NCBI GenBank assembly: GCA_905178155.1 | Contig: CAJINV010000004.1 | Coordinates: 6,240,828 to 6,304,827, forward strand | Reading direction: 5' to 3' | Origin: Amoebophrya sp. A120 | Lineage: Eukaryota > Protista > Dinoflagellata | Length of the DNA stretch: 64,000 bases | Shown: positions 2,870 to 59,800 of the stretch, piece by piece | Layout of the letters: each line of letters starts with the position of its first letter | How positions within the stretch are numbered: the first letter of the stretch is position 1 | Program-made: the position numbers and the translations under genes | Notes under the pieces: generated by a model | The model's database searches: none | What the model saw: only the letters and a program-made list of their open reading frames with translations | What the model was told of the DNA's origin: nothing

Positions 2870-4225
2870 TCAGAGGCCGTAGTTGGCCTTGATGTTTTTC
2901 CGGATGAACTCACGTTTTTTCGGCCCGGTCGTGAGACCGTCCTGTTCGTAGATCTTCGCGACGAGATCGCTGGCCGTGACCTTTTTCGCGGGGGCCTGGA
3001 TCTCCTTTCCGGCTTCCCGGATATCCAGCCCGAGCTGCTTGACCCAGTGGTCTATCAAATGCAAAAATGTCTGGGTCTGGAAGAGTCACGCTGCTTTTGC
3101 ATGACAAAGAAGGGCTGGCATTGAAGCTCTAGCATCACAGGTTTCGAGAAGCTTCCGCAATGCCGAATCTGCATCACAAATGCCCGATTTTGGTGACAGA
3201 AAGTGGCCACCAGCTTTTGCTGCTTATGCATGAGAGATTCTTGTGTGTTATAAAATGCGCATCACAAGTTGCATCCTTCCAGACCCAGACATATTTGCAA
3301 TGCATATGGTCCAGCAGTTCCGGCTTCGCGAGGCCCAACAGCTCCTGCAGTCCCTGGTCGTCGTCCGTGCGGCCCGCCGGGGCGGTGCGCCCCTGGTCCA
3401 GGAGCTTGTTCTTTTCCGCCTGGTTGGTCGTCAGCACCCGCTCGGCCAGCGTCTGTGCGTAGGCGTCGCTGAACCCGAGGTGGCCCGTGCAGAGCTGCTG
3501 GAGGTCCTTTTTGCTCAGGGCCTTGGACTATAGATTGCAAAAATGTCTGGGTCTGGAAGATTGTCATGCTAGTCTGGCATGACTCTGAACTCTGTATTGC
3601 ATGGCCGCGAAGAGCTCCTCCTCCCTGTCATGCAAAAACGCAGTTTCTCATGCAGCGTACGCAACTCAGAACCACGGAAAAACTTGTCATGCTGGGCAGC
3701 GCATTACAGTGCGCTCACTCTTCCCTTTCTTGCATCACAAGTTTCCAGACCCAGACATATTTGCATTTGATATGGACCGGTGGTCCTCCAGCTCCGCCTT
3801 CTTTTGCTCCACCTCCTCGTGGTCGGACCCAAAGAGCTCATCGTCGTTGAACCACACGTTCTCGTTGACCTCCTCTTCCATCCTGAGTAAAAACGTCCCC
3901 ACCCCAAGGTTGTCATGCAGATTTGCAGTCACAGGAAGATTTGTAATGCGCATCCCCATGAGGGGCATTTGCAATAGTGTTCCGGGATTTGTGATGCTGT
4001 AAACAGGATAAGCAGATGGATTTGTGATGCTGTTGTCCTTGCTAACATGCACTACACTACGGAGTGCAACTTGTCATGCGTGGCTCCCAAAACTTCTGGA
4101 TTTGTGTTGCTAAGTTCCCAACTTGACTCTGGGGTGGAGACGTTTTTCAATGTGATATCTTCCGTTTCGTCGTCGTCCTCGTCCAAATCGTCGTCGCTGG
4201 AGTCGCTGCTATCGAAATCCGTGTC

Positions 4226-4256
<31 letters not shown>

Positions 4257-7200
4257 TCGGTGGAGGAGTCATGAAGGTCCACTCCGTCGGCCTTGATCTC
4301 GCTCCCGTGCTTCTTCTTCTTGGCGACCAGCATAAAGTGCCCTTGGAGTGTCTGCACGGATTCCGCCGCGCCGAGGCCCAGGCCAGACAGCACTTGCAGG
4401 TCGTGGTCCGCGTGCGCCGGCGCCACGGACGAGAGAAGCGCGCTGGACAGCGGCGCTGCGGAGGAGTCAGCTTGTTCCTGTTTCTCCATTTCCGCAAATT
4501 TTTCCGTCAGGGTTTTCGCGTACTGCTCGCTCAGCCCGGCCTCCTGCATCGCCTGCTGCAGCTCCCCCTGCGTGGCGTCCTCCTTCTCTTCCAGCTGCTT
4601 CACCTGGTGCTTCACGATCTTCTTCCGCATCCAGTTTTCCATGTCCCCCACCTTTTCCAAACTGCCCAGCCCCAGCTGCTCCAGCAGCTCCCGGTCCTGG
4701 GCGTTCTCCGCCTGGAGCATGGCCTCCGACTGCTCGTCGTGAGACTCAAGGTCTTCGGACTCCTCGCTTTGCATCCCCGCCTCGTCAGGGGTGCTCTCGT
4801 CGGAAACGGGGCTGTCCTTGTGGTGGTGTTTGTGTTCCTTTTTCTCCTTTTTATCCTTCTTGTCCTTCTTTTTTTTCTCCCTCTTTTCCTCCCGCTCCTG
4901 GTCCTTTTCCGCCCTCCTCCGCTCTTTTTCCTTCTCTCGCTCCTTCTTGGCGTCAGCCTCCTTCTTCATCTTCTTGGCCATGGCCTTCGAGTACTCGGGC
5001 GTAAACCCCGCCTGGGCGAGCGCTTTCTCGTAAGCCTGCTCGGTGGGCGGCGCCAGGGTCCGCGCGCCCGCCAGCGCGAGCACTTTTTCCTTCTCCTTCT
5101 TCTTTTCCATCTTCTGGAATTGCTTCTTTTCCATCTTGGCGCGCTCGTACGCGCTCTCCTCGCTGTCGGTACTGCCCACGCTCTCCTTACTCAGGTTGCT
5201 GCCTTTGCTGCTCTGGCTGTCCTTGCCGGAGGCGTGGTGGTGTTTTTGCTTCTTCTTTTTAGTACCCTTCTTGCTGCCGTGCCCAACATGGTCCGTGTCA
5301 CTGGCGCCTGTCTCGCTATCGAAGGCGTGCGCCGCCGTCTGTTGCTTCGCGAAATAGTTCCGGACCTTTTGCATCGTGACCGTTTTGGGGTCTCCCCCGT
5401 GCGTTAGTAGCCCAAGCTTCTCGAACGCCAGCCGGTCCTTGTCCTTGGCGCCCGGTGTCAGAAACTCGGGGATAGACTTGTTCTTTTCGTGCCAGTCCTT
5501 GAGGAGCTTGTCGCAGTAACCGTGAGAAAGCCCCGCTTTCTCGAGCTGGCGGTGCAGGTCGCTCTTCCCGCCGTGCTTGGCTTTCCCGCCGCCAATGCCC
5601 GCGAAGTGCTCGTCGTCGGTTTCCTCGGCTCCTGACGAGGTCGCGCCCCCGCCCCCCGCCTTTTTCTTCGCCTTTTTGTTGGCCTTGGCCTTGCCCCCGG
5701 CCTTCTTCTTGGCCTTCGCGCTGCCCTTCAGCTTTTTCCCCGCCACGGTTTTGTCTTTCTTGTTTTTCTTCTTGTCCCCCGGGGCCTTCTTCTTGAAGCT
5801 GCCCGATTTCTTCTTGTCGGCGCGCTTCTTCTATCAAATGCAAATGTGTCTGGGTCTGGAGGATTGCAACGTGTCATGCTAAATCCGAATTATGTAAAAA
5901 TCTGTTTTGCACGAGCGCCAGAAGCCGTCCACGTTCGACCAAGTTGGAGGGGAGTGTCTCATCCTCATGCAGGATAGGCATGACAAAGACCTCAGGGAGT
6001 CTGTCATGCTTATGTCCTACATACCAGACCTCATGGGGCATGGAAAATCTGCATGACAAGTCTGGCATTCTCCCAGACCCAGACATATTTGCATTTGATA
6101 TCTTCCGCGATTCAACCTTGCCCTTGGTGAACAGCATCTTCTGCATCTTCGCGGCCGTCTCCTTCTCGCCAAAGCCCAGCGTGTGCATCAGTTTCAAATC
6201 GGCGGGCGCCGCGCCGTTCAGGTCAAACTCCTTCAGCTTCTCTTTCCCCGCCAGCTGCCCCGCCAGCCGCTCCCGGAACGCGGGGGTGAACCCCACATAT
6301 TGCAGGGCCACCTCCGCCTGCGCCTTATCTACCACTTTCTCCTTTTTCAGCTCCTTCTGCTTCGCTTTGGCCTTCGCCTTCGCCGCTTTGGCCTTCGCCT
6401 TCGCCCGGGCCTTCGCCTTGGCGTCCCGCCCGCTGTGCTGCTTTTTCAGGGTCTTGGCCTTCCGCGCCACCAGGTACCCCCGGAACTCCTGCACGGTCTC
6501 GGTGCCGCCGAACCCGCACCGCTGCATGACGTGCAGATCGTTCTCGCTCACCGTTTGCAGCAGCGCCTGGCTGCCCCTATCGTCCCCCGCCAGCTGGATC
6601 GACAGGTCGCGCGCGTAGGTTTTCGAGAATTTCAACGCCAATACTTCCTTCTCGTAGGCCGCAGGGGAGTGCAGCTGGGCCTTCTTTGCGATCTCTTTGT
6701 TGCCCGCCTTCTGGTTCATGCGCTTCTGCTTCACCTTGGGCGTGAAAAAGTCCTGCATGTTGCCCACCTTGACCCCCTTTACGCCCCCCAGCCGCAGGGC
6801 CTCCAGGATCTGGATGTCGTGCTCCTCCTGCGGCGGCGGAATCTCCGCGTCCTCCGCCGCGTTCGGGTCGGCCTATCCGGTGCAAAAACGTCCCCGCCCC
6901 CAGACTTGCCATGCAAATCTGCATGCGTAAAAGGTTTCTCATGCGCAGCCACATGAAAGGCATTTTCTCATTTTATCTGGGAGTTTGTGATGCTGGAATC
7001 AGGATAAGAGTATCGATTTCTCATGCGGCGTGCCACTAACTACAAAACAGAATTTCTAAATTGCTCGCCCAAGAAGCTTGTCATGCGCAACAGCCAAAAC
7101 TTGTTGATTTGTGTTGCAAGATTCCGATCTTGACTCTGGGAAGGTTGGGACGTTTTTACGCAGCATACGGCCACCTTTTTCGCCAGCGTCTTCACGTACG

Positions 7201-10200
7201 CTTCGGTGAAGTATGAAAGTGCACAACTCCCCCTCGTTCTCATTTCTCATGCAAAATACCAAATCCACGCTTTCCCTCCTGTCACTATTATGCATGACAA
7301 GTTCTGGTAGCCCAAATAGCACTCTACTCCGGCGCAAATCTGTCATGCAAAACTGGCACTCTTGCTGATGCTTGTATTGCCGTTCATGCTATACAAATGA
7401 GGGGGAGGGGTAAGTAGTTGTGCACTGTCATAAGAAGCCCATGGCCTTCGCCACCTGCTGCGCCTCCCCCAGCTCCGGCTTGAGCCGCTCGCGCCGCAGC
7501 GCCACGTCCAAGAGCGTGCCCTTGCCGTCCGTGGCCAGCTTCGGCGCCTTGGGGTGCAGCGCGTTGTACAACAGCGTGTCCTCGGGCTTGGCGCCCGGCG
7601 GCGGCGGCTTGTAGTGCAGCGCGGCGTAGAGGAGCGTGCCCTTGCCCTCCTTGCCCTGCGCGGCCCGCTGCTTCCGTCGCCGCGCGAAGGCGCCCTTCAT
7701 CTCCACCACGGTTTCGGTGCCGCCCAATTCGTACAACTGCAGCAGTCGCATGTCGTTCTTGTCTTTGGAGCGCACCATCAGGTCCGTCGGGTCACACGCG
7801 TCGTCCGCCAGCTGCACCGCCAGCTTCGCGGCGTACGCCTCGGTAAAACCGCTGCCAATCAGCGCCTTCTCCCACTCCCTCACGGTGAAATCGGGGAAAT
7901 CCTCCAACAGTTCGCCGGCCAATTTGTTCTCGCGTTTTCGCGCGACGGCGGGCGTGAACAGTTCCCGTGCCTCGCGCAGGGTGTGGATGCCGCCGAACTT
8001 CAGGCGCTGCATCACGGCCAGGTCCGCCGGATTCGGGCGCGGCAGGTCCGTGTCGTCGCTCAGAGTCGCGTCGGCCAGCATTTTTCCCACTTTGCGGGAA
8101 TACTCCGGCGAGAATCCGGCGGCCAACATGGCCTGCTCCGCCTCCGTCCGGTCCGGAATGATGATCTCATCGTCTTTATCCGGGGTAAAAACGACGTCCC
8201 GATCCGCCCAGAGTTGTCATGCAAATCAGCAATAAACCTAAGACGTTTCTCATGCGCAGCTCCATAAGTAGGAGCGTTTTTCAATGCTACATCTGGGAAC
8301 CTGTCATGCTGAAATCAGGATGAAGGTAATCCACTTGTGATGCGGCTGCACTAGCGGAATACGATCATTAAACTGCTCGCCCACATTTGTCATGCGCAAC
8401 AGCGGCCAAACCTATGTTGATTCGCGTAGCAGAGTTCCCAACTGTTCCATTATGCGGTGGGGACGTTTTTACATGTGATAGTCTTCCAAATTCAGTGCCG
8501 CGGCGGAGTCCCGCACGTCCTCTTCCTCGCTCGCCGAGTGTTCCACGGGCGGAGGGGGCTCCTCTTTCTTCTTTTTACACAGACAACACAAGAGGAGCAA
8601 AAGCAGCAGCAAAGCCAGCATCGCCAGGATCGGCCACAGGGGAAACCCAGCCTCCTCCTCCGGACTGCCCATATCCGTGCCGTTCACGGGCGGTGCGCCT
8701 CCCCCGATGGGCCCGGTCGTGGTCGTGGTCGTGTCCTCGTCCATCTCATGCGTGTTTAATCCGATCCATGACTCGCAACCCATCACTTTGACCTCCGTAT
8801 CGGCCGCCTCGCAGCGAAACACTGGGGCGCTGCCCTGGTACGTGTCTGCACAAACTACCGTCATCAAACCGACCGGAAACGGATGCCATGCGCCTTCCGG
8901 GTTGGGAAGCATTTCGGGACGCGTGAGAAATCCTTTCCAAGCGTCGAGGCTTTCGTCGGTAAAATTGAACCTGAGGACGGAGTGCGTGTGTTGAGAAAGT
9001 TCGCAACATAAGAAGAATCAACAGGCCAGTGTGATTATTAGTAGTAGGTGTAGGTGTGAGGTACAGCATACACCAAGCCCATAGTACCGGATCATACAGA
9101 CGGGGAATTTCTGACAGATTTACGTTTACCGCTCTCATCTCCGCCAAAGTCAAAATACACCGTAATCAGCATGTGCAGACGAAAAAGCCTTGCGCTCCTA
9201 CAACTACCTACGACAACGACTCGCAACAAAAACAAAGAAAGTAATTAAGTAGTACCTTTCTCGATCCGGATTCGCAGGAACAAGCACTTTGCAGCCCCGC
9301 TGGCAGCAGTTCGCTTCGCATTGGCTTTTCAGTAAATTCAGATCAGCAAACCAGTCCCCGCCGCACTTCTCGCCCGGATCTTTTTTGATCTGATACGAAC
9401 CGCCCGAGACATCGCAATGATCTGTCTCCGCGACGAGCCCGCACTCCGGCTCGCAGCGCTGTCCTGTGACGGTGGTTCCATCCTGCAAGGTTTCCACAAA
9501 CGAGATCGGCCCCACGAAGTTCGCGTCGCACTCCAGACAAAACTCGAGCAGGGGAGCGGGGCACTCCCAGGTGTCGGTATTTGGCTGGGGCGAACCTCCA
9601 TGGGAACAGCGGCACTCGGGCGGCGCAGTCGGGTCAACATATGTGTCACAGTTGATCAGCTGGAGCTCTGCGCCACTTCGTGGGCAGAGAAACGCCGGAT
9701 TGGCCGGCATCCAATTCTCAGCGCAGGAAACACCAGCTAAGGTGACCTGAGTGTTAAAGGACGCCAGCTTTCCAGTATCTTTGAGAACTTCTTCCCAATC
9801 ACTACCGGAGAGGCCTTGCGTTTGGTTGAATATGGACGAGCTGGCTTCGGGAATCAGACAAGTGGCGATGCAGCAAGAGCTTAAACACTGGTCCGTCGGA
9901 AAGTCTTCTTGTACCAGTTCGCCCCCGCACTTAGTGTTGCTTTTGCTTGGATCTCTAATGGCAAGTGCTCTGCCACCTGCTCCAGTCGTTGTACAAGCGT
10001 CGGTCTGCTGGAGGCCTGCACACGTTGGATAGCACACCTTGTACATTCTTGAACCCTCTCCGAGGACTATCAGTATGGAAAGCGTCGCACCAGTGATGCG
10101 ATCAAAGACACCAGAGGCCAAGCATTACTGAGCAGTGAGTTTGAGCTTGAGGCCTTCCTGCTGCATGAAAAAATACGTGCGACTGCACCGGCTACCTTTG

Positions 10201-13200
10201 CATTTGCTGGCGTCCTCGTGCGTAGCTCTTTCCAAGTGGCGCGTCGCTACCAAACACTGTTCTCATCATAAACAGTGGAATTGTATGGATACGGACGCAA
10301 TGGGAATCGCATCCGCATGCACAGCACACAAAATCAAATTCCGGTTTCCATTTCCGGGAGACAGCAGGCGACTAACACTAATTCTATCAAATAAATGAAA
10401 ATGAAACTCTCCGACATGATCAACTTAGGTATGCATAAATATCTTGTGCTTGCGTAGGTGGTCTTTGATCTTACTATCAAGGTACAGCTCGAATCCATTT
10501 GATATCCATCGCAGGTTCGTAACCGTCATCGCATGTTTTACAGTCCTCCTGACCATCTGCGTAGCAGGTGAGCGTGTGAGAACTACTGTCGCCGTTTTTA
10601 TAATCTTTCTTAACCCCATTGGTGCAGGTGCAAACCTTTTCAGTAACGGTCTCGGTTACTTGTGCTGTATCACGCTGCGGACACACCTTGAACGAGCTAT
10701 GAACTTCTGCTCCGTTCCGTCGCCACTCTGGTAAATAAGTAAGCGAGGCTGCTCCGACGGCGTCGCGCAGCCAGCAGCCGTGTACCTGATCTGGCGGATG
10801 CTGGGTCCACGAGTCCTCATCGCTGGGTGATTGGTCTTCATCCAAAGCAAAGAATCGTTTGGTACTTCCGGCTCCAGCCGACATTGCTTTGCACCACGGC
10901 GTGATCCGGCACCAAGCCATGCAAAGGAAGTAGCCCATCCCCGGGCCATCGGGGAGGTACTGCCACTCCCAATCCTGACCTGTCCTCGGAACTCCGGAGA
11001 TACTGGTGATGTCCTTTCCGGTTCCGTCCTGGAGTGAAACTTGAGTGATCTGTACCTGAAAGCTTTCCTCTTGTTGGAATACTATCGAAGCAGGATCCTG
11101 ACCCGGTGGATCCTCGTACCGATACCACTTCATTCCCAAAGACTCCAGGTCGACATCGTTGTCCGCGTCCTCCCAATTTCCTTGAAAAACCTTCGCGTTC
11201 CCCAAAAAGGCCCCGCCGTTTGGGGACCCGCCACCCATTTGTTCTGGCCAGTCCATGAATAGTCCATAATCTTCCTCCTTGCAATCGCCGAAGTTACTGA
11301 AACCCTCGTTAGCAAATGTTATGAAATGTAAATGGGACTGCTCAAACAATCAAATGAAGAATGTTTCCGTTTCCATGTACTTAGTTAATTTTCATGTTCA
11401 CTTCGCGGCATTGCAGCACATGACCTATTTTTGCTCATGACAGAGCGTCGCAGTAAACGCAACAACGTGCGGAAGTAAGTTTAGATACTAGCAGCCTCAC
11501 CCGAGTTCAATTACCTCCGACTCTATGCATTTCAAGTATAAAAATGCCGTCGTGCCTGCTGTGAATGTGAGTGTTAGCTTGCTGCTAAGCGCGCGTCTTG
11601 TTTTTCTTTTATTTGATTGTAGTGCTGCAGAATGGAGTCGCCTGGATAAACATTCCTTGGCGGTCAAAGCATGGGCTGCCGGACTGTATGTCGCCGTACT
11701 TGTCGCCAAGAAATTTGTACTCGTATCCCGATGTGTCATGCTCTGACGCAGCCATTGTTTCCTCTGTCACGATGTTCTGAAACAAACGACAGGCAGGCCC
11801 TTTTGATTCTTTTTTATTGCCGGCGTAAAACCCTCTGTTATTTTTGAACCACTTTCCATCTCCATCCGCTGGTAGTTCCAGCGGGGTCGCACCTGCTGCC
11901 TTGTGGTAAAAGGTCCAACCGGTGCAACGCGTATTAAACGATGTCTGGGGATTTTCTCTTAGCGCCTTGCCACTCTTTTCCCAGAACGTCGGCCAGGCAG
12001 CACATACTGCCGCACACTGATCGGCGCCCTCCAGGTTGGTTCCGTCCGGGTCCTTATCCATATTTGCCGCACCTATCAGATGATAGCTCTCTGTTGACCC
12101 CCAGTAGTTTCTCTCCTTTGTCCACACATCGAAGTCAAGGATTACAGTGCCAGTGAGGACTTTTTGTTCACCAGGGTTCGTCTTGTGGCACATCGCCGCG
12201 TACGCATTCGTAGAAACCTCCTTTTTGGCATCAACTTGCGTTCTTTCCATCATAGCCACATCATGATCCTCGCTAGCTTCTATCTGTTTCTCTTCTACTA
12301 ACGCCGGCGTCTCTCGGAGTACAACTTCCGGTGTGCTGACCACAACAGGGTCTCTTTGTCGAGCGCTGCCGGGTGCCTCCCCGTCCTGTAGAAAGTCGTC
12401 CTCGCGGAGTACAACTACGTCTGTTATCAAATGCAAAAATGTCTGGGTTTTGAAGAATCTAAACTTGTGATGCTGTCTCTGGATTCGAAAAAGATTTGTA
12501 TTGCATGACCAGCAAAAGGAGTAGATTTTGTGCTCCGCGGAGATGGCATCTGTCATGCGGAATACATAGGCATGAAAAAGCGCTCTAACAATCTGTGATG
12601 CTACGGCATGCATCACAGACATCATGGGTCATGGATGGTATGCATGACAAATCTAGAAATCTTCCTGACCCAGACATTTTTACAGTTGATATCTGTAGTT
12701 TTTGTTCTATCGTTTATTTTATTCCTCTCATCAACACGACTTCTGCGTTGATCTCCTGTCTCGTCCTTTCCTCCCCCCTGATTCCCGGCTGGAACCGGAG
12801 CGTAGTTTTCATCGCTCGAGGATGTTCTTGACCGGTGCGAAGAAGTTATCGAACTTGACGGCAGGGAAAGTTTCCTACTCCTTCCGGAAGTTGTACTCGT
12901 ATTTCTCTTGCTCGGCGCCCGAGCTAGCAGAAACTCCTGAAACGACGCTGTTCGGCTACTATCAAGAGTAGGACCATTTGACGACGGCGCTCCTCTCGCA
13001 ATCGGTGTTGTTGAGTGAACATGATTACTCTCCTCCTGCTCGTCTCGCTGGTCGCCTACTCTTTTCTCCACTTGCTCCACCAGGTGGGAAGTTGAAGAAA
13101 CTGCACGCCTTTTGGTCTTGAGCACGTGGCGCGGTTGTTTTTTGGTCTTCTTGTTGTTCCGTTGCACCATGTTGAGCCGGTACGCCATGCTGGGCAGTAT

Positions 13201-14578: not shown

Positions 14579-17488
14579 TCAGATTACGATTCTCTCCGGG
14601 TCGCCCTCCAAAGTGTCCGGTCCAGTTGCCTCACGCGCAAGCGTTCCATGGCGAAAAAGCGGAACGATGCTCTGTAGACGGTCCTGGTCGGTGAGTCTGT
14701 CATGGTGTTCGGGGGACGTGAAAAAGAAGAGCCGCTTGCGTTCCGCCAAGGTCCGCAGGCCGATGAGGTCGTCGGAATAAAAGGGTCCGGAGTCCTCCAA
14801 TGGCACGACGGCTCCCTCGCTATTTTCCTGCGCGAAGAACTCCGTTTCTTATCAACTGCAAAAATGTCTGGGTCTGGAAGAATGCAAGTTTGTCATGCTT
14901 GTCTGGCATGACTCGACGAGAATCTGTGTTGCATAAGCACGAAAAAGCCCTCTTACCTGTCATCATCATCATCATTGAGACGGACCCCCTGTGGTCGTCC
15001 TCGCGGCGTCGTCTTGGCCCTAGGCTGTTTCGGACAGATGTTGGCTGTGTCCGGCAAGAGGACGGCTCTGCGTGGGCAAATGTTGGTAATGTCCAGCAAG
15101 AACGCTTCCGTGGCCCCATTTTCTGCCGGTTTTTGGCTTTCGCCAGGATTACCCGCAACACCACCCGTGGACAGTGAAACCCGTGGCAGGCTTTCGCCAG
15201 GCGGTCCCGGGGAGGCCCTCCTCTTGGCACAATGTCGGTTAGTTACCAACTCGCACTCCCTGGAAGCGAGAAAATGAGCCCATCCTATGTTGGTGCGAAG
15301 CACGAGTGGGATCATTGGCTCGGGCGAGTAGTTGGGGGGGCTACTCTGGGGGTACGGGGACTGTTCGACGGACTGCTGCTGGATATGAAAAACCTCGGGG
15401 CTACTCACGACCATGGTCGCAGGCTAAGTTAGGCAAAGACTCCGTAGAAGTTTTCGCTCTGGTGGCCTCACATGGACCTGTCATGCAAAAAGGCAGCTTG
15501 CCATGCGGAATAGGTAAGGCATGGCAGCCAAAAAATTTGTCATGCATAGCTGCGTATCGCAGTGCGTCTATCATTTACTTTTAGCATTACAAGTTTCCAG
15601 ACCCAGACATATTTGCAATCCATATTTCTCGTGGCACGACGATTTCGTCCTGCGCAAACTTGATCAACAGCATTGCACCGACGTCCTCGGGTTCTACTTT
15701 CTGCCTGGTTACCGGTGCTCCCGGTCTCGCGCTCGCCATCGTGCCCGTTGTACCCGGCGTATTTTTCGATTGGAGGAGACGGAATTTGTCCACTGAAAAT
15801 AACTGATCCTCGGTCCGATCTTCTACTACTTCCTCCTTGGGTTGTTCTGGTCTTCCTCTTGTTTTCCAGTCTGGCGGGTTCACACCGGGGTCGGAAATAG
15901 TGAAGTTTGACGTGGCAGCATTTTTTCCAGCACCCGGCGATAGCACATTTTGTTCATCCCAGTGAACAAGCATCGCACCGTTTGTTGAGAACGTGGTCTG
16001 TTCGACGTCTTGGAGCTCGTCCAGGAGTACCTTCGGATTGTAGTTCGCTGCTTCCTTGACAACGCCACGCAGGCCTTCTTCCACCTCGTCGTCCGTTTTG
16101 GTGCGGTGTCGTCGAGATGAAGTCCTGTTTAATATCTTCTTGTCGTCCTGCTCTACCGCTCGATCCCCCTCCCCAAGGAGATTTCGCAGCAGATTCTGCT
16201 TCTGCAGCTTTCCCGCCGCTGTGTCGGCGTTGTACTCCGCGCACTCGTTGTTCAGCTTTCCGAGAAAAGTATTTGCGTTGCCAAAACTCCGCATGTCCCT
16301 CGGGTTGTACACGTAGCCCGCGGGCCCGATCAGGCGCTGCATTTCCGGTGCAAAAGTATCGTGATCGTACTCGCATAAATGCATTACCAATTTACTCAGC
16401 ATGAGAAATGAAATTTGTAATGCAGATTGACCTTAAGAACAAGATTTGTAATGCATGAATGCAATACGAGTACGATGCTTTTGCACAGGATACTGCACCC
16501 AGGGGTACAAATAGGCTTTCCGCACCACCCAGTCAAGCAGATTTCGGAAGAACACGGGAATCTGGTCCGAGGGCGGAATCTTGGTGATGCCCCGCTGCGG
16601 TCCGCCCACCGAGACGAAAAATTTGATCCGCAGGGGCAGCGCGCAGTTCTGCAGCACGTGGCGGCCGACCATGCCGCCATTCGAGTGGCCAATGATCGCC
16701 ATCACCCGCTCGTCTGGCGCATCGTCTGCACTGCTGGAAAAGAACCTGGGGTTGGCTATGGAAGGAAAGTTGTATTGTATCATGATGACCACGCACGGTC
16801 AGTACCTGCATCTTTACTTTTTCAACATCCAGTGACGTTTCTCATCACAGAGAAGTATTCCCGCCCACGTTTTCGTGTGAGTCAGCACTCGTGATCTTCT
16901 AAGAAGAAGAACCAATCGATGTTGAAATTATAAGAAGCAGCTAAGTATTCAAGTACTTACTTTCACAGTCGTGAGGCAGATCAATACTTATTTTCTTTCG
17001 ATACCCGCCTGCAACAACGCACATGCGCGGTTGGCCTGCTCGGCCACGGGGATCAGGATGGTCTCCTGTTTTCGTGCGTACTCGATCGAGTGAAACTCCC
17101 AGCGATCGCCCAGCTGCTGGTTCAAGAACGCCACCTCGTGGTCTTCCGCACCGGCGTCCGCGGAGAGCCCGTGAAAAATCGCAACGGGATTTTTCAGCTT
17201 CTTCTTCTTCGCCTTCACTTCGTGCAAAGCAGAAGGCGACGCGGCTGGGGCTGCTTCGCGAGGGTGGGTTTCATCTTGCAATAGAACCGCAGCTGTGGTG
17301 CTGGTTATACCCGCATCAGGCTGCTCTTGCGCTCGGTCGTCGTTAACTTCAACTACCCGGACTGCAGTCGTGTAGAAGCGCACGAACAAAGCGAGGACAA
17401 GACTCGCGGGAACAAAAAACCGCCGAGACCCGGGTACGCTGCCCCGCGCGAAGCCGAGGCGACGCAGGAAAGGCAGGAGACGTGTCAT
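14579..17488 (-). CDS. Palmitoyl-protein thioesterase (PPT1-like alpha/beta hydrolase)
   Basis: PVAIFHGL, nucleophile motif IIGHSNGG, FVSVGGPQRG, PAGYVYNP, FLGKLNNE, FAQDEIVVPRE|TEFF, YSDDLIGLRTL, TSPEHH; N-terminal hydrophobic segment. Confidence 0.85.
14850..15624. mobile_element. Introner, family A, carrying a nested insertion
   Basis: TSD tttct; both arms match element 21646-21900; removal gives VVPRE|TEFFAQ. Confidence 0.9.
14964..15475 (-). mobile_element. Putative truncated non-LTR retroelement/SINE inserted within an introner
   Basis: 9-bp TSD acctgtcat (14955-14963 and 15476-15484); (CAT)n tract at one end; no TIR; absent from sister element 21646-21900. Confidence 0.7.
16342..16492. 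mobile_element. Introner, family D (~150 bp, TIR TATSCWGTGCAAAAGTATCG)
   Basis: TSD ctgca; removal gives PWVQ|RLIGPAGY. Confidence 0.9.
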
Positions 17489-22100: not shown

Positions 22101-23175
22101 ATTCACCAGGTCGTGGTGGTCCTGTCGGAGGGACTACACCCGAAGATTTGCTATAGTAGAAGTTCTCCGCCTGGAGCTCCCTTGAGTAGCTGCTGGTGCT
22201 CCTGCCGCCTGTTTATTACAATGAAAGGCGCCCCCACCACGCCGGGAGATGCAATTGCAAAAGTTTCTGCTGCATAGTTTCCAAATGTGAACTTTTTGTC
22301 TTCTTGCATGAAAGGGGTATGAGACTCTCTGATGCAAAATCTTGGCGCGCAAGTCTGTTTTGAGTATGTAAAAGATCCGGCTGTTACTGGGCTCTTTTCT
22401 TGCAACGCAAATTTATTTAGCTAGTCAGCATGGAAAATTCTGTGATGCTCTCACATGCAAGGTGAGGAGTGTTTCCATTGCGGGGTTTTGCACTACAAAT
22501 CAACTCTGCGAAGTTCTGGGGTCGTCGTGGGGACACTTTGCAATACCATACCGCGATCGAATTGTTTGCGCTGGTCGTGGTTGAGGAGGCGCTCGTGGAA
22601 GCCACGGTCGTGGGGTGCGAAGAAAAAGAACTGCCCGGCTTCAGGGATGTTGTGCCACCGCTTTCCTGGTGGTCCATGGTGTCCGAATCAAATTCCTCCG
22701 TGCTGGTAGAAGAACACTCATCGTCGTCGACGCGCTTGTGCTTCTCACGTTGCGCCTGATTTCTGTTGTTTTTCAAGGAGATGGATGCGGTCGCTTTTAT
22801 TGCAGTTGTCGGCATTTTTTTCTCCGGCGACCGGGAACCCGCGTAGCAGTTGTTGTGATCATCTCCGGTAAAAGTCCTACTTCTCCCCCGCGCAGTATTT
22901 TTATGCTGGTGGAAATTCATCTCCTGCTTGTTTTGCTCCTTTTGCTTCCAGAAACTCTGCAGCGAAGCAATGCGCGAAGGTTTGTTTCCCCCGGAAGGTT
23001 CGTTTGCAAGTTCCTCCACCGCAGCGACCCCAGCCACCGCAGCTGGGGTCGCTGCCGCGGCGGCTGGGTGACTCGGCGCGGCGGCGACAACCATTTTTGG
23101 CTCTGGTGCTTTAGGATCGACCGGCACGTCGGGCGGCAACTCTAGCTGTATTGCCTCCAGTTCTTGTACTGGCAC
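19180..23175 (-). CDS. Aurora-family serine/threonine kinase with long low-complexity N-terminus
   Basis: [109 protein letters not shown]. True start and one 3' junction are uncertain. Confidence 0.92.
19762..19956. mobile_element. Introner, family D
   Basis: TSD actcg; removal gives LLYE|FLMG. Confidence 0.88.
20356..20689. mobile_element. Degenerate introner (singleton; short TIR TATCAAAGTGAAA / TATGCAAAGGGAAA)
   Basis: TSD only 3/5 (gggtg/cgatg); removing element plus 5 nt restores KHII|HRDIK. Confidence 0.65.
21240..21501. mobile_element. Introner, family A
   Basis: TSD actcg/actcc; removal gives ASE|YTLDDF. Confidence 0.9.
21646..21900. mobile_element. Introner, family A
   Basis: TSD ccctg/tcctg; TIRs present. 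Confidence 0.9.
22210..22550. mobile_element. Degenerate introner, family B-like
   Basis: Decayed TIR (CCCCAC core) and ccgcc/ccgcg flanks; resembles 24915-25231; boundaries approximate. Confidence 0.6.
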
Positions 23176-37804: not shown

Positions 37805-38111
37805 TATGGATGTGTCAGAGTTGAAATCGTCAAAGTTGAAATAATTTGTCATGCATAAAATGGATGCCAGTTGGAACCCAGTTTCCAAGTGGCGCATGAC
37901 AAATTTCGGTGGTCCCTAAATCCAGTTTGTCATGCTGTTTAGGCAAAGAAGAGTGGTTTTCTCATGCTACTTTAGCAGCTCGAGCTGTAGCCCCAAACAG
38001 GCTTACAATTGGCCTCACTTGCCTGCTCTGCAACACACGCACCTCGGGCCATGCATTTTATGCATTACAAAATATTTCAACTTTGACGATTTCAAACCTG
38101 ACGCTTCCATA
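37805..38111. mobile_element. Introner-family E element outside recognisable CDS (about 165 nt 3' of the PHF5A stop)
   Basis: TSD gttct; reverse-complement match to 31299-31604 along its length. Confidence 0.88.
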
Positions 38112-45700: not shown

Positions 45701-45850
45701 GTAATCGCAGTCATGCATTACAAATCTTTTTATCAAGGCAAATCCGCATTACAAATTCCATTTCTCATGCTAAGGAAATTTTAATATGCATTTATACGAG
45801 TACGATACTTTTGCAATTGATACGTTCTGCACCGAAATCAAAGGCCGCAT
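39762..45850 (-). CDS. ABC transporter subfamily D (peroxisomal fatty acyl-CoA half-transporter-like)
   Basis: TMD motifs ([27 protein letters not shown]), Walker A GPN|GCGKT, YLPQNPY, signature LSGGERQKL, Walker B ALDE|ATSA, H-loop SIAHR. Six introners plus a GT-AG intron near 40625-40845. Start uncertain. Confidence 0.92.
39974..40198. mobile_element. Introner, family C (at Walker B/D-loop)
   Basis: TSD ggctt/agctt; removal gives LDEA|TSAV. Confidence 0.9.
40315..40567. mobile_element. Introner, family A
   Basis: TSD caaac; removal gives TARL|EEKGQDW. Confidence 0.9.
40911..41175. mobile_element. Introner, family A
   Basis: TSD tccca; removal gives ICVG|TLLDNV. Confidence 0.9.
41546..41797. 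mobile_element. Introner, family A
   Basis: TSD tttct; removal gives VGRN|LNKF. Confidence 0.9.
42158..42478. mobile_element. Introner, family F (inside Walker A)
   Basis: TSD cgttt/cgttc; removal gives SGPN|GCGKT. Confidence 0.9.
45673..45822. mobile_element. Introner, family D
   Basis: TSD cgttc; removal gives SVQN|ATPLR. Confidence 0.88.
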
Positions 45851-50890: not shown

Positions 50891-53800
50891 TTAGATGTTG
50901 GTGGCCATCTGGAGCTTGACGATTTCGTCCTTTAGCAACGCGTCGGAGTCGTGCAGGAGAAACTTTATCCTGTGCAAAAGTATCGCACTCGTAGTAATTG
51001 TATTTATGCATTACAAATCTCTTTTTCAAGGCAGATCAGCATTGCAAATTCAATTTGTAATGCTGGGCTAATTTGTAATGCAATTTATACTAGTGCGATG
51101 CTTTTGCATTGCATAAACTTCTCCTGGCAGCAATTCTCCCACTCTTCGACCTTCTGCAGCAATTCCTCGACCAGTTTCTCTTTTTTGCGCCGCAGCCGAT
51201 TCCGCTGCTGTTCCTCCTGCAAGAGCAAAATCGAGTTGCCCTGTCATGAGGTGATGTGAAGATTTAGGGTTCTTTCTTTGATGCCGCGAGCTAAGTTCCT
51301 TCTTTTTATGAGCAAAAAACCTCTCATGCAAAGATGAAAAGAGTAGGTAGGAGCTACATTGCGACTACGACTGCCTACCACGAAACACCGCACGAAAAGG
51401 ATGTTTCAAATTTAAGCACAAGAGTCAAGTCATCTCAAAGACAGCCTCTACCTTGAACCGATCCGCGCCTTTCTCCTGCGTGTTGGCTTCAAACTCCCTT
51501 ATTTTGGTTTTCAGCTGCACGCACTGGTCGTATTTGCGCAAGATGATCGCCCGCGCCTCCGTCTTCACCCGCAGGTGGTGACATTCTCGACGCACAAGCA
51601 ACAACGCCTTCAGCGGGCTTTGCCTCAGCAGCGTAAAACCGGCGAAATGGGGCGAACTGCCAGGGCTGGCGCTGGAAGGTGGTCCGAGGAAGCTGCCAAA
51701 CGTGGTGGAATAGGAATTGCCTTGCGAGGATGAACTATCGTGGTCCAAAGTCACAGTTGTACTACTCGAGGAAGTTGATGCGTCCACTTCCTCGCGCAGC
51801 GACACTGCGAATGTGGCAAACACGTCCGCATCCAGCTGCTGACAAGTCTCAGAGGAGAGTCCTCCTGCAGCTATTCCGCCCGCTCCGAACAACGTTGGTC
51901 TACTACTTGTAGTTTCACTGGGAGTTGTACCAGTATCGTTCTTCTCAACACCGCTAAGATGAATCATTCCTGCCCCGTTGTTTATCGGCGTCGAGGTCGT
52001 ACTACTTGCCGCGGAATGGGAATCCGTGCCAGAACTTTTACAACCGGTCCCGTTGAGCAGGCTCTTCACCCGGGCGGTGAACCCGTTTCTCTCCTCCTCC
52101 GGGGTCTGCAGTTCCTCCCACAATTCCGCAAGCTCGACGCGGGCGCCGGCCACTTCCGCCCGGCACTCCTCCTGCAGCCGCTCGAGCTCCAGTTCCAGTT
52201 TTCGTACTTCGAAAAACGAGCAGGGAGTTGATGAAATGACGCTTTGAATTTCCTGCTCTGATGTTCTACTTGACGAGCTTTGCTTCTTGTCTTTGTTTTT
52301 CGGCGTATTCCCCGTTTTCTTACTCAGATCCACAACAACTACCGGTGTGGACGTCGCAGAGGAGCTTGAGTTTGATGCTCCCTGCTGCTGCCCACGATGC
52401 TTGGCCGCCCGTGCGTCGGAGAGGGATTTTATCTGGATAGAAGACGAGTTGCTTTCCTGGTGGTCTACTCCACTCGACGCATCGGAAGTGGTCTGATGTG
52501 GCGTTGTTGTACTAGTACTGGCACCCTGCTTACTGCCAAAAGAACCCCCTCCAAACGAACCGCCAGTTACTTGTTGCTCTTGCGACAAGCCCGGTCCTTG
52601 TTGTTCCAATCGGTTGTTGTAGCGCGAAATCTCCTTTTGCAGCTTCTGCTTCACGTGTGCGACGGCTCTCTTGACCAGCTGCAGTTCCTGGTTGCGCTGT
52701 GCAACTTCGCAAAGGAGATGCTCGCTCCTTTGGTTCGACGCCTTTAGTACACCACTTCCCGATGATCCTCCAGCTACCGACGGAGCAAGTGTCGTAGCCT
52801 CACCAGCTCCGGCTCCTCCGGGCAGTGTTGAGGCAACTACTCCACCTGGCGTTAGCAAGTTGCTCGCTTTTTCCTCATCCGTCAGACTCGCTATCTCTCC
52901 GTCGACAAAGAGGCGAAGCTCCACTCCGCTCATGGGCGCCCACAGTGTTTTCGGTGGCTGTAGGAAAGTCGCGTCGTGCGCTTCTTGCAGGGAAAAATCG
53001 TTTTGCTGCTGCTGCACGGACGCGAGGGTGCGGGGTCCGGGGGTGAAGGAGGCATAGTTGTACTTTGATGTCGCCTGCGTAGAGGAGCTACTGCTGCTCT
53101 TCGACACCAGTACCACATCCGATGCTCTCGACGTCGTTGATGTGCTAGCAGATGACTGCCGTTCCGCGCGACCATTTGCAGGATCAACATCAACCTCGGC
53201 TTGCTCTTCACCTTCAGCCGGGATGTTGCAGGATCCACCACCATACACGAGCCACTTCTTTGCGATCCTTCCTCCCACCGCTTTCGTTCCCGCCGGGACG
53301 AGGTAGAGCTCCTCCGCTAGCAAGCGCAACTGGCTGACCTGTTCGGTCAACACATCCTTTGCCACGTGCTGCAGTTTCTGCAGCCGTTCGTGCAGCGGCA
53401 GTGGGGTAGTTGGTACGACAGCAGCTGAATTCTGCTCCGATAGAGAACTGGAAGAGGAAGATGCTGCAGCTCCTCCGATGGGGTGAAAGACGAGTCCATT
53501 TGCTGGCCCGGTAGATGAACTTGAGCTTGATGACGTTCCGAGATCTCCTTGATGCTTCTGCGGAGACAAGGTCAACACAGAATACTTGTCAAGCACTGCG
53601 GTCAAAGCGGAAGGCTTTTTCCCCCGCGTCGCAGTGGAGGCAAGGATGTTTCCCTTCAGCAAGGACGCATTTATGTTGAAACTACCTGGTGTATTATTTA
53701 CGGCGTTGCCGTTGGCGCCACATGGCTGCTGTAGCTGCTGGTGTTGTTCTGTCGATGAGTGCGACGTTGATGTTGAACTACCCTGGTTATAAAACCCGTT

Positions 53801-56800
53801 CTGCTTCACAGTGGTTGCTAGCCGGACGTCATATTTCGAGAGCAGTTCCGGGAAACTGCTTGCAGCCGGTAGTTGTAAGGAGCCACTTGCAGTTGATGTG
53901 CCACCGGTATTCAGTGCTTTGCCCGATGCGCCACTGCCACTTGTGTAGTTCTTGCCACCGCTCGCCGAGAAGGTACCAGTAGATGCTGAAGTTGTACCAG
54001 AACCCCCAACTGTAATCGAGTAGCACTTGGACAGCCCCTCCTCGAGCCGACCGGCTTCTTTTCTCAGCTGATACCACCGGTACTCTTGGTGCTCCAACTC
54101 GTGGGCGCAGATGTCAATGACCCGCTTCTCCAGAATCGACAGCTGGGCTTTCTGCTTCTCCGCGCCCATGCCCACGTCCGACCAAATGTCAAACAGTAGA
54201 GCTTGCGCTTTCGCCAAAATTGCCGGCAAGGGGCTGGGCTGTGGTTGCGAAACGGTCGCACTAGCACTGGAGCTGCCTGACGACTGGGTACCACTGCTGC
54301 TCTCACTCGTCTTTTTACTGCTGGCTGCGCTGGCCGCGATGGCTTCGTCCGCTAACTCGTAGAGCAACTTGCTCAGCGTGCCCGCTGCGGGCTTCGAGGA
54401 TGATGTTTTAGATCGTTTCGATGATCCTGGTACGACGAGTGTTGTCGCGAGAGATCCCGAAGTTCCTGATCCACCACCAGGAGTTCCACTATCCAAGTCT
54501 TCCATGATGTGGTCACCAGGAGCTCCTCGACTCAGATCATGATCCAAAAAGCTGTTTCTACTACTACTGCTTGCTTGCTCCGCTATCAGCGCCGCGTTTT
54601 CTCGCCGCAAGTCGGTAACGGTTTCTTTCAACTGATTGAGTTCGTCCTGCAGGTGATCTGCGGTCGAGTCACGACCTTGCGGGGGGAATATCCTCGCTGT
54701 ACTGGCGCTTGGTTCATCCGCAGGTCTTGTCCCGCTTTGCCGCAGCTCGTCGTTTTGTTTGCGCAGGTCGAAGTTCTGCTCTTGTAGGAGCCGCAACTGC
54801 TCCGAACGCAGATCCTCCTCATTATGGTGATTTCCGGTCAACAGTGAGGATTTCTTGCCATTGCCACTGCCTGGCTTATTCTGTTTTGCCGGAGAGGTGG
54901 ACGTTGCACTAGGGCCGGCAGAGTTCCCTTCTACCTGCGTAGAAGAGGTAACACCACCTTGCACTTCGTTTAGCAAAGCCAGTTCCTTCTCCACGTGCAG
55001 CCGCTGTATTTCCGCCAGCTCCCTCTCCGCTTCCTGCTGCTGGACGTCCAAACGCTGCTGCAAGTCGGTCTGCACCAACTGTCCCTGCTCGATCTCAGCC
55101 TCCAGCGACTGCAGGCGCGTTTTGAGCGCTTTCGCCTCGGAGAACGCCTCGTCCAATTGGTCCAGCGCTGCCACGCACACCGTGGCCACGTTGCGGTGCG
55201 ACTGCAGCTTCTCAAATAGCTTCGCCCCGAAGGATGTTGTAGCACCTGCTCTATCGCCAGTACCACTAGCAGGCCACCTTGAAGTAGTAGAACTACAAGT
55301 AGCGCTGCTGCTAGTGGAAGTACCTGTACCATTATCCCCTTGCAGTAACTCTGCGAGCTCCTTTTGCGTTTCGGCGATCCGGTCGGTGTCGTACTGGAGC
55401 TCGGCTTGCAACGTTTCTTTCTCCTCCCGCAGCATTTGTTCGTCGTCGCCGTTGGTCAACAGCTGCTTTTGCAGCTCTTCGTTTAACTGCTGGAGTTGCG
55501 AAACCTTATCGTCCCGCTCTCGCAGGTCTCTTTCCAGTTTCGTGTTGGCGTCCTTCAGCCGTTGTGCGCGGGCCATCTCGCGCTCCACCCACAATTTTCG
55601 CTGCGCGATCTCCCCGCTTAGCAGCTGCGTTTTGTTCGTTGCATTGGAGGTTTGTTCAACACCTCCCGCTGTAGTACCACTAGTAGTACTGCTCCCGCGG
55701 GGATGTTGCAGTTGCGTCGAGCCGCTGGAATGTCTAGTTCCAACCGGCGTTGCTGCGTTAGAAGCTGCAGCTGTACTATTCCACTTCAAACCACCAAGTC
55801 CGAGTGGTGTTCGCGGCTGCGAGGTTCCAACCAGCAAGGGCGTCGCAGCCCCGGACCGGAGCGTGGACGTCGACCCACCACTGACATTCGCGGGGTAGGT
55901 TACCGGCGTGCCCGCGAGCACCTGTTGCCTCCGGATTTTACTGGTCAGCGCGTTGTTTTCCTCCTGCAGGTTTTTGTACTTGGCCTGCCACTCCTTCTTC
56001 CACTTCCGGAACCGGTTCTCCTCCTGCCGCACCCGGTGCTGGATGGTGTCGCGCTGGCCCCGGAGGCGCGCGATCTCGTCGCCCATCTTCAGCATCCTCC
56101 GTTCCTGCGCCTCCTTGGCGCGAAACAGCCGCTGCGCCTCCTGCTGCTGCCGTTGCAGCTGCGTCAAGTGCCGGTTAACCTCCGCGAGCTTGCCCTGTAG
56201 CAGCGCCTGCTTCTGATTAGAACTACTACTTACCGGCGTTGGAGTTGTTGTAGCACTACCAGACAGCGGACCAGTGGTGGTACTACTGCCCTTTTCCGAG
56301 ATTTCCTTTTCCAGTTTCAACTTGTCCGCTTGCACATTCGCGATTTGGTCCTCGAGCTCCTTGCACCGGGACTCGTAACGCTGTTTCATGCTGTAAAATG
56401 CCCTTTCCTGGAAACAGAGCTGCTCCATCAACTTCTCTTTTTCTGCTATAGCCTTCTCCAAATCCACCATGCGCTCCTGCAAATTTATCAAAGGGAAAAA
56501 TCCCCCCTCCCCATATCGAAAAGGCACGTCTCAAGAAATTTGTAATGCTGATTGGTGACCACAGATCGTCTCTGTCTTGCAAGAACGCAACCCCACAGGC
56601 TCCGCCGCATTCTGCAGGCGGTTTGTGATGCTGTTGGCCCTACAGACTAGACGTTTGCCATGCTCAGCGCCTAGCCCAAAACCTCCCTACTCAGGGTCAG
56701 CATAGGCGTGCAGGCCTCTCTAGCAGGACAAATCTGATTTGTGTACGCAAATCCAGCATCAGAAACTTCGTTTTGATATGGGGAGGGGGGATTTTTCCTC

Positions 56801-59800
56801 ACAATAAAATTCTGCTGCTCCTTCCGAAACGTCTCTTCCTCGGCCTGATCCGTGGCCGCGTGGGTGAGGTCCTCGAGCTCATCCATGTCCAGGGGCGGCT
56901 CTTCCGCTGCAGAAGCTGTGGCGGCGCTGCCGGTATTGTTTGATGTTGCCTCTCGAGGAGCTGTGTTGGCAACGAGGATCTGTTGCGATGAAGATGCATC
57001 GACGAGGACCTGCGCGCGACTCTGTGCGATCACGCGCTGCAACTCGGAACTGTTGTTGTTTGCGATCTTCTGATCGGCCACCGCTTTTTGCAGTCTGCTC
57101 TCTAAATTCCGAATCCGCTTTTTCTGGTCGTCGATCTCTTTCAAGTACGCTTTCAAAGCTTTTTTCTCCAAGTCACCTTCCCCGTTGCTCGCCAAATCGT
57201 TTGTGTCACCATCGTCGTCAGTCGTGAACAGCTTACTGGCCATGAAATTGTGCTGCGCCCGCAGTTTCTCCGTTTCCTCCGAGGCCTCGCGCAGCTTGAT
57301 TTTCAATTCGGTGTTTTCGCTCTGGAGCTGTTTGTTCTCTTTTCCAAACCGGTCCAGCTGCTCCCGCAGTTCCGCCACCACGTCGGAAATCTGCCCGTCG
57401 GAACGCATCGTAGCCGATGTAATTCCGCCGGCACCACGGCCGCTCATGTCCGTTTTCGCAATCAACAGTTCCAGCTGCAGCTCCTGGATGCGCTATCCAA
57501 CAAAAAAACTCTGTTCGTGTAACTTTGCTTGGCTGACAGCATCACAAATTTGCTCTACATGACAGCGAAAACCGGTCATGCGTTGCTTGTAAGGGAAAAC
57601 ACACATGAAAAGAGGACTTCATGGCTGTCTGGCATGACAGGCGTAACTCTGTTGCATGTTCTGCATATACAAAGTTACACTTACACAGTTTTTTTCTTGC
57701 ATATGCGCTGCTTCATTTTCACCAGTTCTGCGTCCTCCACGTTGAGATTTTGGGAAACTTTGTTCTTAATATTGCGCGCACGGTTGGCGTACCTGGGTTG
57801 GTGGAGTTTTTTTGTCGACAAGGCGATAGGTATTGAACATCCAACCATAATTGAACTGAACACGATCAATTGCGATTCCTTTTTCATTTGGTAGAAAGAA
57901 AACTCGTAGGCCACGGCGGATCATCGATCAACAAGCAGCAAAAAAACAAGTACTTACTTCAATGTGTTCAAACTTTCTCCGAAGTTGACGTCTGCCGGAC
58001 TGACGCACGCGAGCATTACGGTCCGGGAATTCCCCCCCAGACTGTCCTGCAGGAGCCGGGTGAGGCGGGAATCGCGATACGGCACGTGCGCCTTGTTCAG
58101 ACTCGCGTCCCCGAGCGCCGCAATCACGTTTCCTAGTGCGAGCAGGCCCTCGTTAATCGCACGAAAAAAGTACTACAGGTACACACTTGTTGTCAATTCA
58201 GCAACACATATTTCTCTGCATGAGAGAGAAAACTTGCAATGCAGAAATCCTAAGGGAAAACACCTATGAAACGAAGCACCTATGCATATCCGGCATGACA
58301 GAGCTGCTCTGTCTTGCTTGGCCTGCAACACAATGTGTAACTGCAACACTTTTTTCTTGCGATATGGTTGATCGCCACGCCCTCCCGGAACCGGTCCCCC
58401 ATCGTGCCGGTCTTTTTCACGCGCTCGGACCCGGCAAGGTCCACAAACCGCAGCTTTGCCGTCAGGCAGTCGCCGTCCTGCTTCTGCCGTTCCACAACGA
58501 CGGAAAACACCGCGTGAGACCTTTTCATTCGAGTTCGATGGGGAGTTGATGTTGTCGTATTGTTTTCATTTCTTGATCAGGTCTAGCGGGAATAAGGATC
58601 GAATTGGAATTCCTGGCCATTTGTAGAAGAGAGACCTCTACGTCAGAAAACAACATATACCTCGAGGAGTAGTCGTTCATTAGAGTTGCGCCGGTGGTTC
58701 TGTACACAGCACCCCGGTCCAGAACTTTCAGGAGGTCACTGGCCGTTCGCACCTCCACTTCGCGGAGTCCGGAAACGACGACGCCTTGGCGGGGTTTCAA
58801 ATAGCCTTCAACAAATACCGAGTGTCTAGAAAGAAATAGCAACAACATGAATCGGGCACTAACTCGTGCGGCCACAGCAGGTGGAACGCGACAACTGCAT
58901 ACAGCGACTTACGTAGGGCTAGGGAGCAGCAGCTAACAAAACAATTATTCTTCCAAATTTTCATCTCCCTACAGCATTCTTTTTAACCTCTTACCTCGTT
59001 CCCTGTCTTCCCGAATCACAAGCCCCTGCAAAGAAGAAGACGAAGCCCCCGCCGCTCCACCACTAGAAGTTGCTGTACTTGCAGCCGACAGGCTGCTGTG
59101 CATTGCAAAAGCATCGCACTAGTATAAATCGCATGACAAATTTTCTCAGCATGAGAAACTGAATTTGTAATGCAGATTTGCCTTGAGAAAGAGATTTGTA
59201 CTGCACGATTGCAATTACTACGAGTACGATACTTTTGCACAGGATAGCTGCTACTAGCCAGCAAGTCCTTCAACTCCTCGTTGTGGAGTTCGAGAAAACT
59301 GCACCGCACCAAAAACTTCTCCGTCTTCCGCTTTTCCATTTCCGCGAACAAGCACTGCACGAACTTGGGGATCATGCCCGACTGCGCGTCCCCCAGCCCG
59401 TTGTGGACCGCCTGCGCAAAGCTGCCCAGGGTGTAGGTCTTCCCCGCGCTGGTCTGCCCGTAGGCGAGCAGACTGGCGTTGAGCCCCTCGAAGACGCCGG
59501 GCACCAACGGGCGGCAGCACGTCTCAAACACTTGCTGCTGTGTCGAATCGGTGCCGAACACGTAATCAAAGGTGTACCGCTGCTGCCCAATCGCAACAAC
59601 CGGGTCGAAGTGGGGTGTTGCGAGTGTTGAGTGTAACGCCCCCGCCGACGTAGTTGCAGGGTTGCTGTTGTCCAGCGAACTGCTGCCATTCGGACAAACA
59701 ACGCACTCCGCGCACCCGTTCTGGGCCTCGCGGCTGATCAGCGGGCGGATCCGAACCGCTACTTGCACCCGCTCCATCGTAGAAGCTGCGTTGTCCGCAG

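Follow-up and report, generated by a model that had tools for sequence, protein, structure and literature searches.

Introners of Amoebophrya sp. A120 carry a conserved internal word of about 12 bp that recurs across families with different inner terminal repeats. Judging from the sequence, this word probably forms an array of putative binding sites on double-stranded DNA, read on one face of the helix by a single shared transposition protein, and not a splicing code. We analyzed a window of 64,000 nucleotides (contig CAJINV010000004.1, positions 6,240,828 to 6,304,827) containing 43 curated elements, together with a further sample of loci described below.

A conserved word inside introners

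The word was first recognized as the octamer T[GC]T[ACG]ATGC, which in either orientation occurs 163 times in the window (95 copies on the plus strand and 68 on the minus strand). The 43 elements, which together span 10,689 bp, hold 155 of these copies at a density of 14.5/kb, compared to 8 copies in the remaining 53,311 bp (0.15/kb), an enrichment of about 100-fold. Dinucleotide shuffles of the elements (n=300) yielded 5.0 +/- 2.2 octamers with a maximum of 11, and every element contains at least one copy. A sequence-only reading of the window had claimed that the octamer is enriched in introners and scarce in exons and GT-AG introns, and both claims were borne out: the 11 GT-AG introns (2,071 bp) contain 2 octamers in total, with none in either of the two introns it had named, 8971-9255 and 38426-38611. 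Its copy numbers were slightly high (about 7 in 3529-3772 and about 6 in 31299-31604, where strict counts are 6 and 4). Its statement that both orientations occur in every family stands for 29 of the 43 elements but not for the other 14, which have a single orientation and include all five family-4 copies in the window (starting at 3879, 6874, 8177, 27268 and 33735).

The enrichment test, proposed on a genome-wide scale, was run against canonical introns and background in the window and against background in 147 further loci (605 kb, contigs JACKZZ01…), fetched by scanning with the terminal inverted repeat (TIR) of families 0 and 1. These loci share the same families at 70-97% identity and have no long stretch in common with the window, so they appear to be more loci from the same or a very close genome, not independent species. 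The octamer was present in 374 of their 377 further elements, at 14.2/kb. Outside the elements of these loci its density was 1.35/kb, falling to 0.27/kb once profile hits were masked.

Expectation-maximisation combined with an interior-only rebuild showed that the site is really about 12 bp long, RRYYTSYVWTGCW, with the consensus RRYYT[GC][TC]V[AT]TGCW, and that it recurs 3-6 times per element. When the motif was set against neighboring element bases, a comparison that the sequence-only reading had proposed, its conservation exceeded that of the interior in all 10 window families (p=0.002) and in the 12 families of 6 or more copies. In these 12 families, positions 1, 6, 7 and 8 deviate from the consensus by 2.6-6.4%, compared to 19.7% in the element interior. 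Exchange among A, C and G is free at position 4, where T accounts for only 36 of 546 changes; at position 2, 219 of 326 changes exchange G and C. In the interior, by contrast, transitions are the most frequent change. Because the changes are confined to an allowed set that differs from the interior mutation spectrum, the substitution pattern reads as that of a degenerate protein site under selection and not of a passive relic.

The window elements are 149-341 bp long, apart from one enlarged to 775 bp; they start with TAT, finish with ATA and are flanked by a 5-bp target site duplication (TSD) that is perfect in 35 of 43 cases, has one mismatch in 7 and is worn in 1. Their inverted ends consist of TAT, about 7 nt and an A-run. 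Among 36 family-consensus ends, TAT is present in all 36, C or G at position 4 in 32 and A at position 13 in 34. The TIRs, previously described as unrelated, are in fact common to the families over their outer 15 bp or so and become unlike from about position 16. At least 18 family clusters carry the same motif despite TIRs that differ beyond about position 15.

Spacing and helical phase

We analyzed spacing in 18 families (391 copies), giving each family equal weight. Of same-strand pairs, 26% are spaced 30-33 bp apart, compared to 4.8% in random layouts, and none of 400 layouts reached 26%. Direct pairs 30-34 bp apart (n=25) are found in 15 of 18 family consensuses, often as a strong site followed by a TTGC variant; tandem duplication was rejected as their origin, the pair flanks being 34% identical. 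Spacings of convergent pairs peak at 15-16, 47, 58, 68 and 99 bp, and the first inward-pointing sites lie about 36-38, 44-48 or 56-59 bp from many ends.

A joint fit of both orientations revealed a sharp peak at 10.4 bp that none of 200 nulls matched. The peak was stable, at 10.3 bp with related families merged, 10.3 bp in the window only and 10.4 bp in the loci only. With the 30-34-bp pairs held rigid it stayed at 10.4 bp (matched by 5 of 300 nulls over all periods and 2 of 300 in the 10-11 band). Before the joint-orientation fit, spacing periodicity in the window alone was marginal (p=0.03-0.12). The helical repeat of B-DNA has a period near 10.4-10.5 bp, and a period of 10.3-10.4 bp that holds across both orientations therefore points to double-stranded DNA. 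Together, conservation, spacing, allowed variants and joint phasing support the proposal that introners share a strand-symmetric cis-signal, and indicate that it is under constraint.

Removal from RNA and decay after insertion

Contigs of four RNA-like runs, which give no levels, skip GT-AG introns and elements alike and are therefore spliced RNA. In raw-read run X9, 99% of 116 reads continued in sequence unlike the window. In 17 of 17 joints examined (3047 to 27579), the skip comprised the element plus 5 nt; 13 of these joints came from the joint table, in which 15 of 24 are listed, and the other 4 were read from contig coordinates, with arithmetic used for one. A single cut geometry is compatible with all 17, the sense-strand intron running from 1 nt ahead of TAT to 4 nt past ATA. 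This 1+4 cut is unique at 10064-10505 and two-way at three other joints. Introns with this geometry would start N-U-A-U-[CG]; the sites are called variable in the accessible text of the 2021 description of A120 introners (PMC7789003). The GT-AG intron at 30941-31112, whose sense 3' end reads ATA followed by CTAG and which contains one octamer, is possibly an old introner turned canonical under the same geometry.

The sequence-only reading had offered two functions for the octamer, a transposase subterminal binding site or a binding site for the excision machinery, and thought that it could explain how unrelated elements are recognized in either orientation. We found no support for the excision option, because introns that lack the octamer are removed, the motif has no strand preference with respect to the transcript, and it decays faster than the TAT ends. 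Octamers are absent from five old non-canonical introns (1,653 bp; 24 expected). These introns no longer have TSDs and match no family profile, but 9 of their 10 ends still read TAT[CG]. Their removal was shown for those at 10068, 19336 and 20356, follows from contig arithmetic for 11320 and was seen at one edge for 16757. Motif orientation on the sense strand was 823:801. One-orientation elements were found in both senses (17:23), and families insert either way; the 5/5 orientation bias of family 4 in the window was gone with more copies (12:7, p=0.36). Gene direction came from a model trained on the window, where its score of 40/42 is not an independent check. The motif is thus neither required in spliced introns nor oriented with the transcript, and for splicing in either orientation the TAT…ATA ends are better candidates.

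Decay was measured in the 488 of 522 profile-found copies with two or fewer TSD mismatches, leaving out the 34 with three or more. Motif-invariant positions deviated in 5.6%, the two TSD copies in 6.6% and the TAT ends in 1.8%, a motif decay about three times faster than that of the ends, in a comparison aligned to TAT-ended consensuses that may understate end changes. Motif decay also grew with TSD wear (5.1, 6.1 and 9.5%). On these sequence comparisons, the motif looks unconstrained after insertion and the TAT ends look constrained.

A putative transposition site and its alternatives

We propose that these non-autonomous TIR elements would need a protein bound at the RRYYTSYVWTGCW word to transpose. 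This protein would be an integrase-like DDE transposase or its helper, and the TA…TA ends together with the 5-bp duplications are suggestive of the Ginger/IS3EU group. Bound on one helix face, it may bend and organize the 110-330-bp element such that the two ends meet. Selection on the word would act only at jumping, so that the word would decay after insertion, and the TAT ends would remain under selection for splicing. Both motif orientations would then be expected, because the element is symmetric about its two ends and inserts in either direction. The subterminal-site option of the sequence-only reading fits the helical phasing, the decay after insertion and the fixed distances that separate inward copies from the ends: the word is repeated, conserved and placed relative to the ends.

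Several observations weigh against a shared transposition protein, starting with the two limits of the decay comparison given above. The published account of A120 introners, as far as its accessible text goes, reports no transposase in A120 (PMC7789003). Neither the window nor the 605 kb of loci, whose open reading frames (ORFs) were not Pfam-scanned, turned up a TAT-ended element with a plausible transposase ORF, and our analysis identified no protein candidate for the motif. Five of 18 families are only weakly phased (mean cosine of at most 0.11), and no phasing of element length was seen. In families 2, 12 and 16 it is the outermost sites that face outward, so the inward-site rule is not general. 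Termini were rejected as motif copies, only 2 of 36 consensus ends matching the motif, which counts against a simple Tn7-like repeated terminal site. Spacers of different families are mostly unrelated, with a small real excess of identity (36.7% compared to 30.5% when shuffled), and shared descent therefore contributes to their likeness. Finally, the five old introns may derive from families that always lacked the motif.

A search for TAT-ended elements of 0.5-12 kb yielded 7 candidates. The one examined (L018:505-1608) had no transposase-like ORF by eye. It looks like a family-7-like element enlarged by repeat sequence: its motif pairs are intact, and some 850 bp of GC-rich ACCTCT/AGAGG repeats separate them. 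Two TIR scans of viral contigs gave no match.

A doubtful though possible extension is that one host-encoded or domesticated DNA-bending protein reads the phased code and thereby licenses tens of thousands of introners with different TIRs to move. If so, TAT ends and a phased site pair would be enough to turn any short DNA into a mobile element and, at the same time, an intron that is removed exactly; this would account for the burst of families although no transposase has been found in the genome.

It is unlikely that the word instead serves a host chromatin or regulatory protein that binds DNA outside transposition, either in packaging or in marking young elements for co-transcriptional splicing or silencing. 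Strand symmetry and helical phasing are predicted as well by such a protein, which would also suit a motif distinct from the TIR ends and a genome with no transposase reported in the accessible text of PMC7789003. Host-level selection, however, should retain the motif after insertion, yet the motif deviates at about the rate of the TSD copies, is absent from the five old introns and is rare elsewhere, at the densities given above for the window and for the loci outside masked profile hits.

That the word has no present function, and is a relic of one ancestral element with internal repeats, is distinctly unlikely. Common ancestry would account for the TAT ends, A-tract and 5-bp TSDs shared between families, for the several interiors in which relationship is still detectable (families 5/9/17, 6/8/10 and 0/1) and for the slight likeness of spacers. 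The motif is nonetheless conserved while its flanks diverge, and its phase holds between modules; the changes at positions 2 and 4, which follow the allowed set and not the interior spectrum, largely refute a relic.

We consider an RNA-level code for splicing very unlikely, whether the word would be recognized by a protein in both senses or would supply the arms of internal stems that help the intron to fold. All 43 young elements carry the word, and those with listed joints are removed exactly. Folding predictions also pair motif bases more than other interior bases (0.72 compared to 0.58), with motif-motif pairing of 0.39 in elements that have both orientations. In one-orientation elements, however, which are found in both senses, motifs have no partner motif to pair with (0.04), and position 4 of the outermost copy on the left does not covary with that on the right (43/101 matched compared to 43.9 expected, and 5/65 compared to 5.5). 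Moreover, the motif-free old introns are removed, and a 10.4-bp period is unexpected for single-stranded RNA.

Excision of the elements from somatic DNA under guidance of the motif, as with ciliate internal eliminated sequences, would suit a strand-symmetric DNA-level signal and the fact that runs X3-X6 are only guessed to be RNA, but it is extremely unlikely given that the element-skipping contigs also skip GT-AG introns, that run X1 contigs cross exon-element borders at a depth of 40-50, and that there is no clean element skip among the 15 run X1 joints listed (1,933 further joints lie outside that list).

The preferred reading, a shared transposition protein bound at the word, separates two signals: mobility goes with the phased DNA word inside the element, and splicing with the TAT…ATA ends and their 1+4 cut. 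Both the spread and the splicing of Amoebophrya introners were left open in 2021, when mobilization by a transposase as a general route was ruled out, according to the text of PMC7789003 that we could consult. The phased word provides a defined bait for the missing protein, making the question directly testable. The motif could also serve as a clock that distinguishes old from mobile introners and as a marker for annotating introners.

Genomic setting

The window reads as one block of minus-strand genes, which the 43 elements interrupt. Pfam matches in 3 of 9 stretches scanned were to a kinesin, an ABC-transporter membrane region and an XRN-type nuclease. Three coding stretches without stop codons (42485-45665, 47620-50050 and 51460-56480), of 2.4-5 kb, contain no element; in neighboring genes there is one per few hundred bases. 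Upstream of the gene block, 62000-64000 is GC-rich with many CTCTAAA-like and TTTTAG repeats, unlike other intergenic DNA, and is possibly the block start or a strand-switch region.

Two observations concern the size of elements. The enlarged family-1 element contains an insertion of about 520 bp (14955-15484) placed exactly at a motif copy, with flanking 9-bp repeats and (CAT)n at one end. It resembles a truncated non-long-terminal-repeat insertion, had no match among the 147 loci, and leaves an enlarged intron that is still skipped. The smallest elements, of 112-116 bp (L014:1734-1849, L014:3032-3144, L040:1008-1119 and L066:5636-5747), have two same-direction sites 32-39 bp apart and are likely the minimal unit.

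Elements and old non-canonical introns of the window, with remarks on motifs and RNA evidence
Feature	Position	Strand	Remark
Family 0	3053..3306	.	5 strict motifs, all in one orientation; RNA contigs skip it together with 5 nt
Family 1	3529..3772	.	6 strict motifs; at both ends an inward site at 37 bp; skipped in RNA contigs
Family 4	3879..4157	.	motifs in a single orientation; one end CAT; skipped in RNA contigs
Family 0	5832..6100	.	skipped in RNA contigs
Family 4	6874..7167	.	skipped in RNA contigs
Family 6	7212..7432	.	skipped in RNA contigs
Family 4	8177..8480	.	skipped in RNA contigs
Old intron	10068..10504	-	TAT ends kept, TSD lost, 0 strict motifs; unique cut 1 nt before TAT, 4 nt after ATA
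Old intron	11320..11648	-	0 motifs; removal inferred from RNA contig coordinates
Family 0	12425..12691	.	
Family 1	14850..15624	.	split at a motif by insertion of about 520 bp; still skipped in RNA contigs
Family 2	16342..16492	.	
Old intron	16757..17003	-	0 motifs; single edge seen in RNA, at 17005
Old intron	19336..19641	-	0 motifs; RNA joint in 4/4 runs
Worn element	19762..19956	.	1 strict motif
Old intron	20356..20689	-	0 motifs; RNA joint in 4/4 runs
Family 0	21240..21501	.	
Family 1	21646..21900	.	
Family 11	22214..22550	.	TSD worn; start set by RNA joint
Family 11	24915..25231	.	
Family 0	25331..25601	.	
Family 2	25766..25914	.	
Family 6	26064..26303	.	
Family 2	26441..26614	.	
Family 4	27268..27578	.	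skipped in RNA contigs
Family 0	28359..28617	.	
Element	28771..29039	.	loose link to family 8
Family 1	29686..29978	.	
Element	30037..30249	.	unclustered
Family 7	31299..31604	.	4 strict motifs
Family 1	31656..31908	.	
Family 0	32084..32349	.	
Element	32553..32732	.	unclustered
Family 4	33735..34013	.	
Family-2-like	34247..34408	.	
Family 5	35025..35358	.	
Family 7	37805..38111	.	apparently outside coding sequence
Family 6	39974..40198	.	
Family 1	40315..40567	.	
Family 0	40911..41175	.	
Family 1	41546..41797	.	6 strict motifs, spacings 31, 33, 20, 39, 47 bp
Family 5	42158..42478	.	
Family 2	45673..45822	.	
Family 2	50966..51115	.	
Family 5	56486..56806	.	
Family 3	57494..57703	.	
Family 3	58155..58364	.	
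Family 2	59097..59246	.	

Comparison with known systems

The accessible text of Farhat et al. 2021 (PMC7789003) describes A120 introners with ends of TAT, about 7 loose bases and an A-run, bordered by short direct repeats; they average about 240 nt, are non-canonical and exactly removed, and lie in co-oriented gene blocks. The window elements match these published introners in their TAT ends with an A-run, short direct repeats at the borders, repeated families and exact removal at non-GT-AG sites. That text describes terminal repeats only, and the internal motif, its phasing and the fixed 1+4 cut were not found in it. Nor were the internal motif, its phasing or its separation from the splicing signal found in the accessible text of PMC12130899, PMC11282704 or the other Amoebophrya and introner literature searched (figures and theses lay outside this scope), and the octamer was in none of the introner papers listed by those searches. 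The elements are thus already known; what is new, relative to the literature searched, is the internal motif with its conservation, spacing, phasing and separation from the splicing signal.

The supplement of Gozashti et al. 2025 (PMC12130899), as far as available, lists one A120 family as Ginger with TA…TA and 5-bp TSD features. This introner family 38 is about 810 bp long; according to the accessible main text it lacks Ginger homology and termini, and no subterminal motif is mentioned there. Ginger2/Tdd and IS3EU/GingerRoot are integrase-related TIR transposons, according to the portions of PMC2836005 and PMC10045372 that were available. By those same portions, Ginger2/Tdd resembles the window elements in its 4-5-bp TSD (5 bp in Tdd-4/5) but has TGTNR termini, unlike the 36 of 36 ends that are TAT here (PMC2836005), whereas IS3EU/GingerRoot shares the TA…TA ends but usually has a TSD of 6 bp compared to 5 bp here (PMC10045372). 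Compared by ends and TSD with these partial accounts, the window elements lie between the two groups, neither of which fits fully.

Subterminal sites are an already known kind of signal. One analogue of the window motif is found in the miniature inverted-repeat transposable element Emigrant, in which internal repeats besides the TIRs are bound cooperatively by Lemi1 proteins; as the accessible text has it, Emigrant is one family with its own transposase, whereas the window word spans at least 18 clusters with differing TIRs (PMC1636448). Tn7-like and CRISPR-associated transposons, as presented in the available text of PMC10201428, are bacterial, have TG ends and carry internal sites that repeat the terminal site, whereas 2 of 36 ends match the motif here. 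Their ends nonetheless resemble the window arrays in holding several asymmetric internal TnsB sites at 10-bp-periodic spacing, along with a host IHF bending site.

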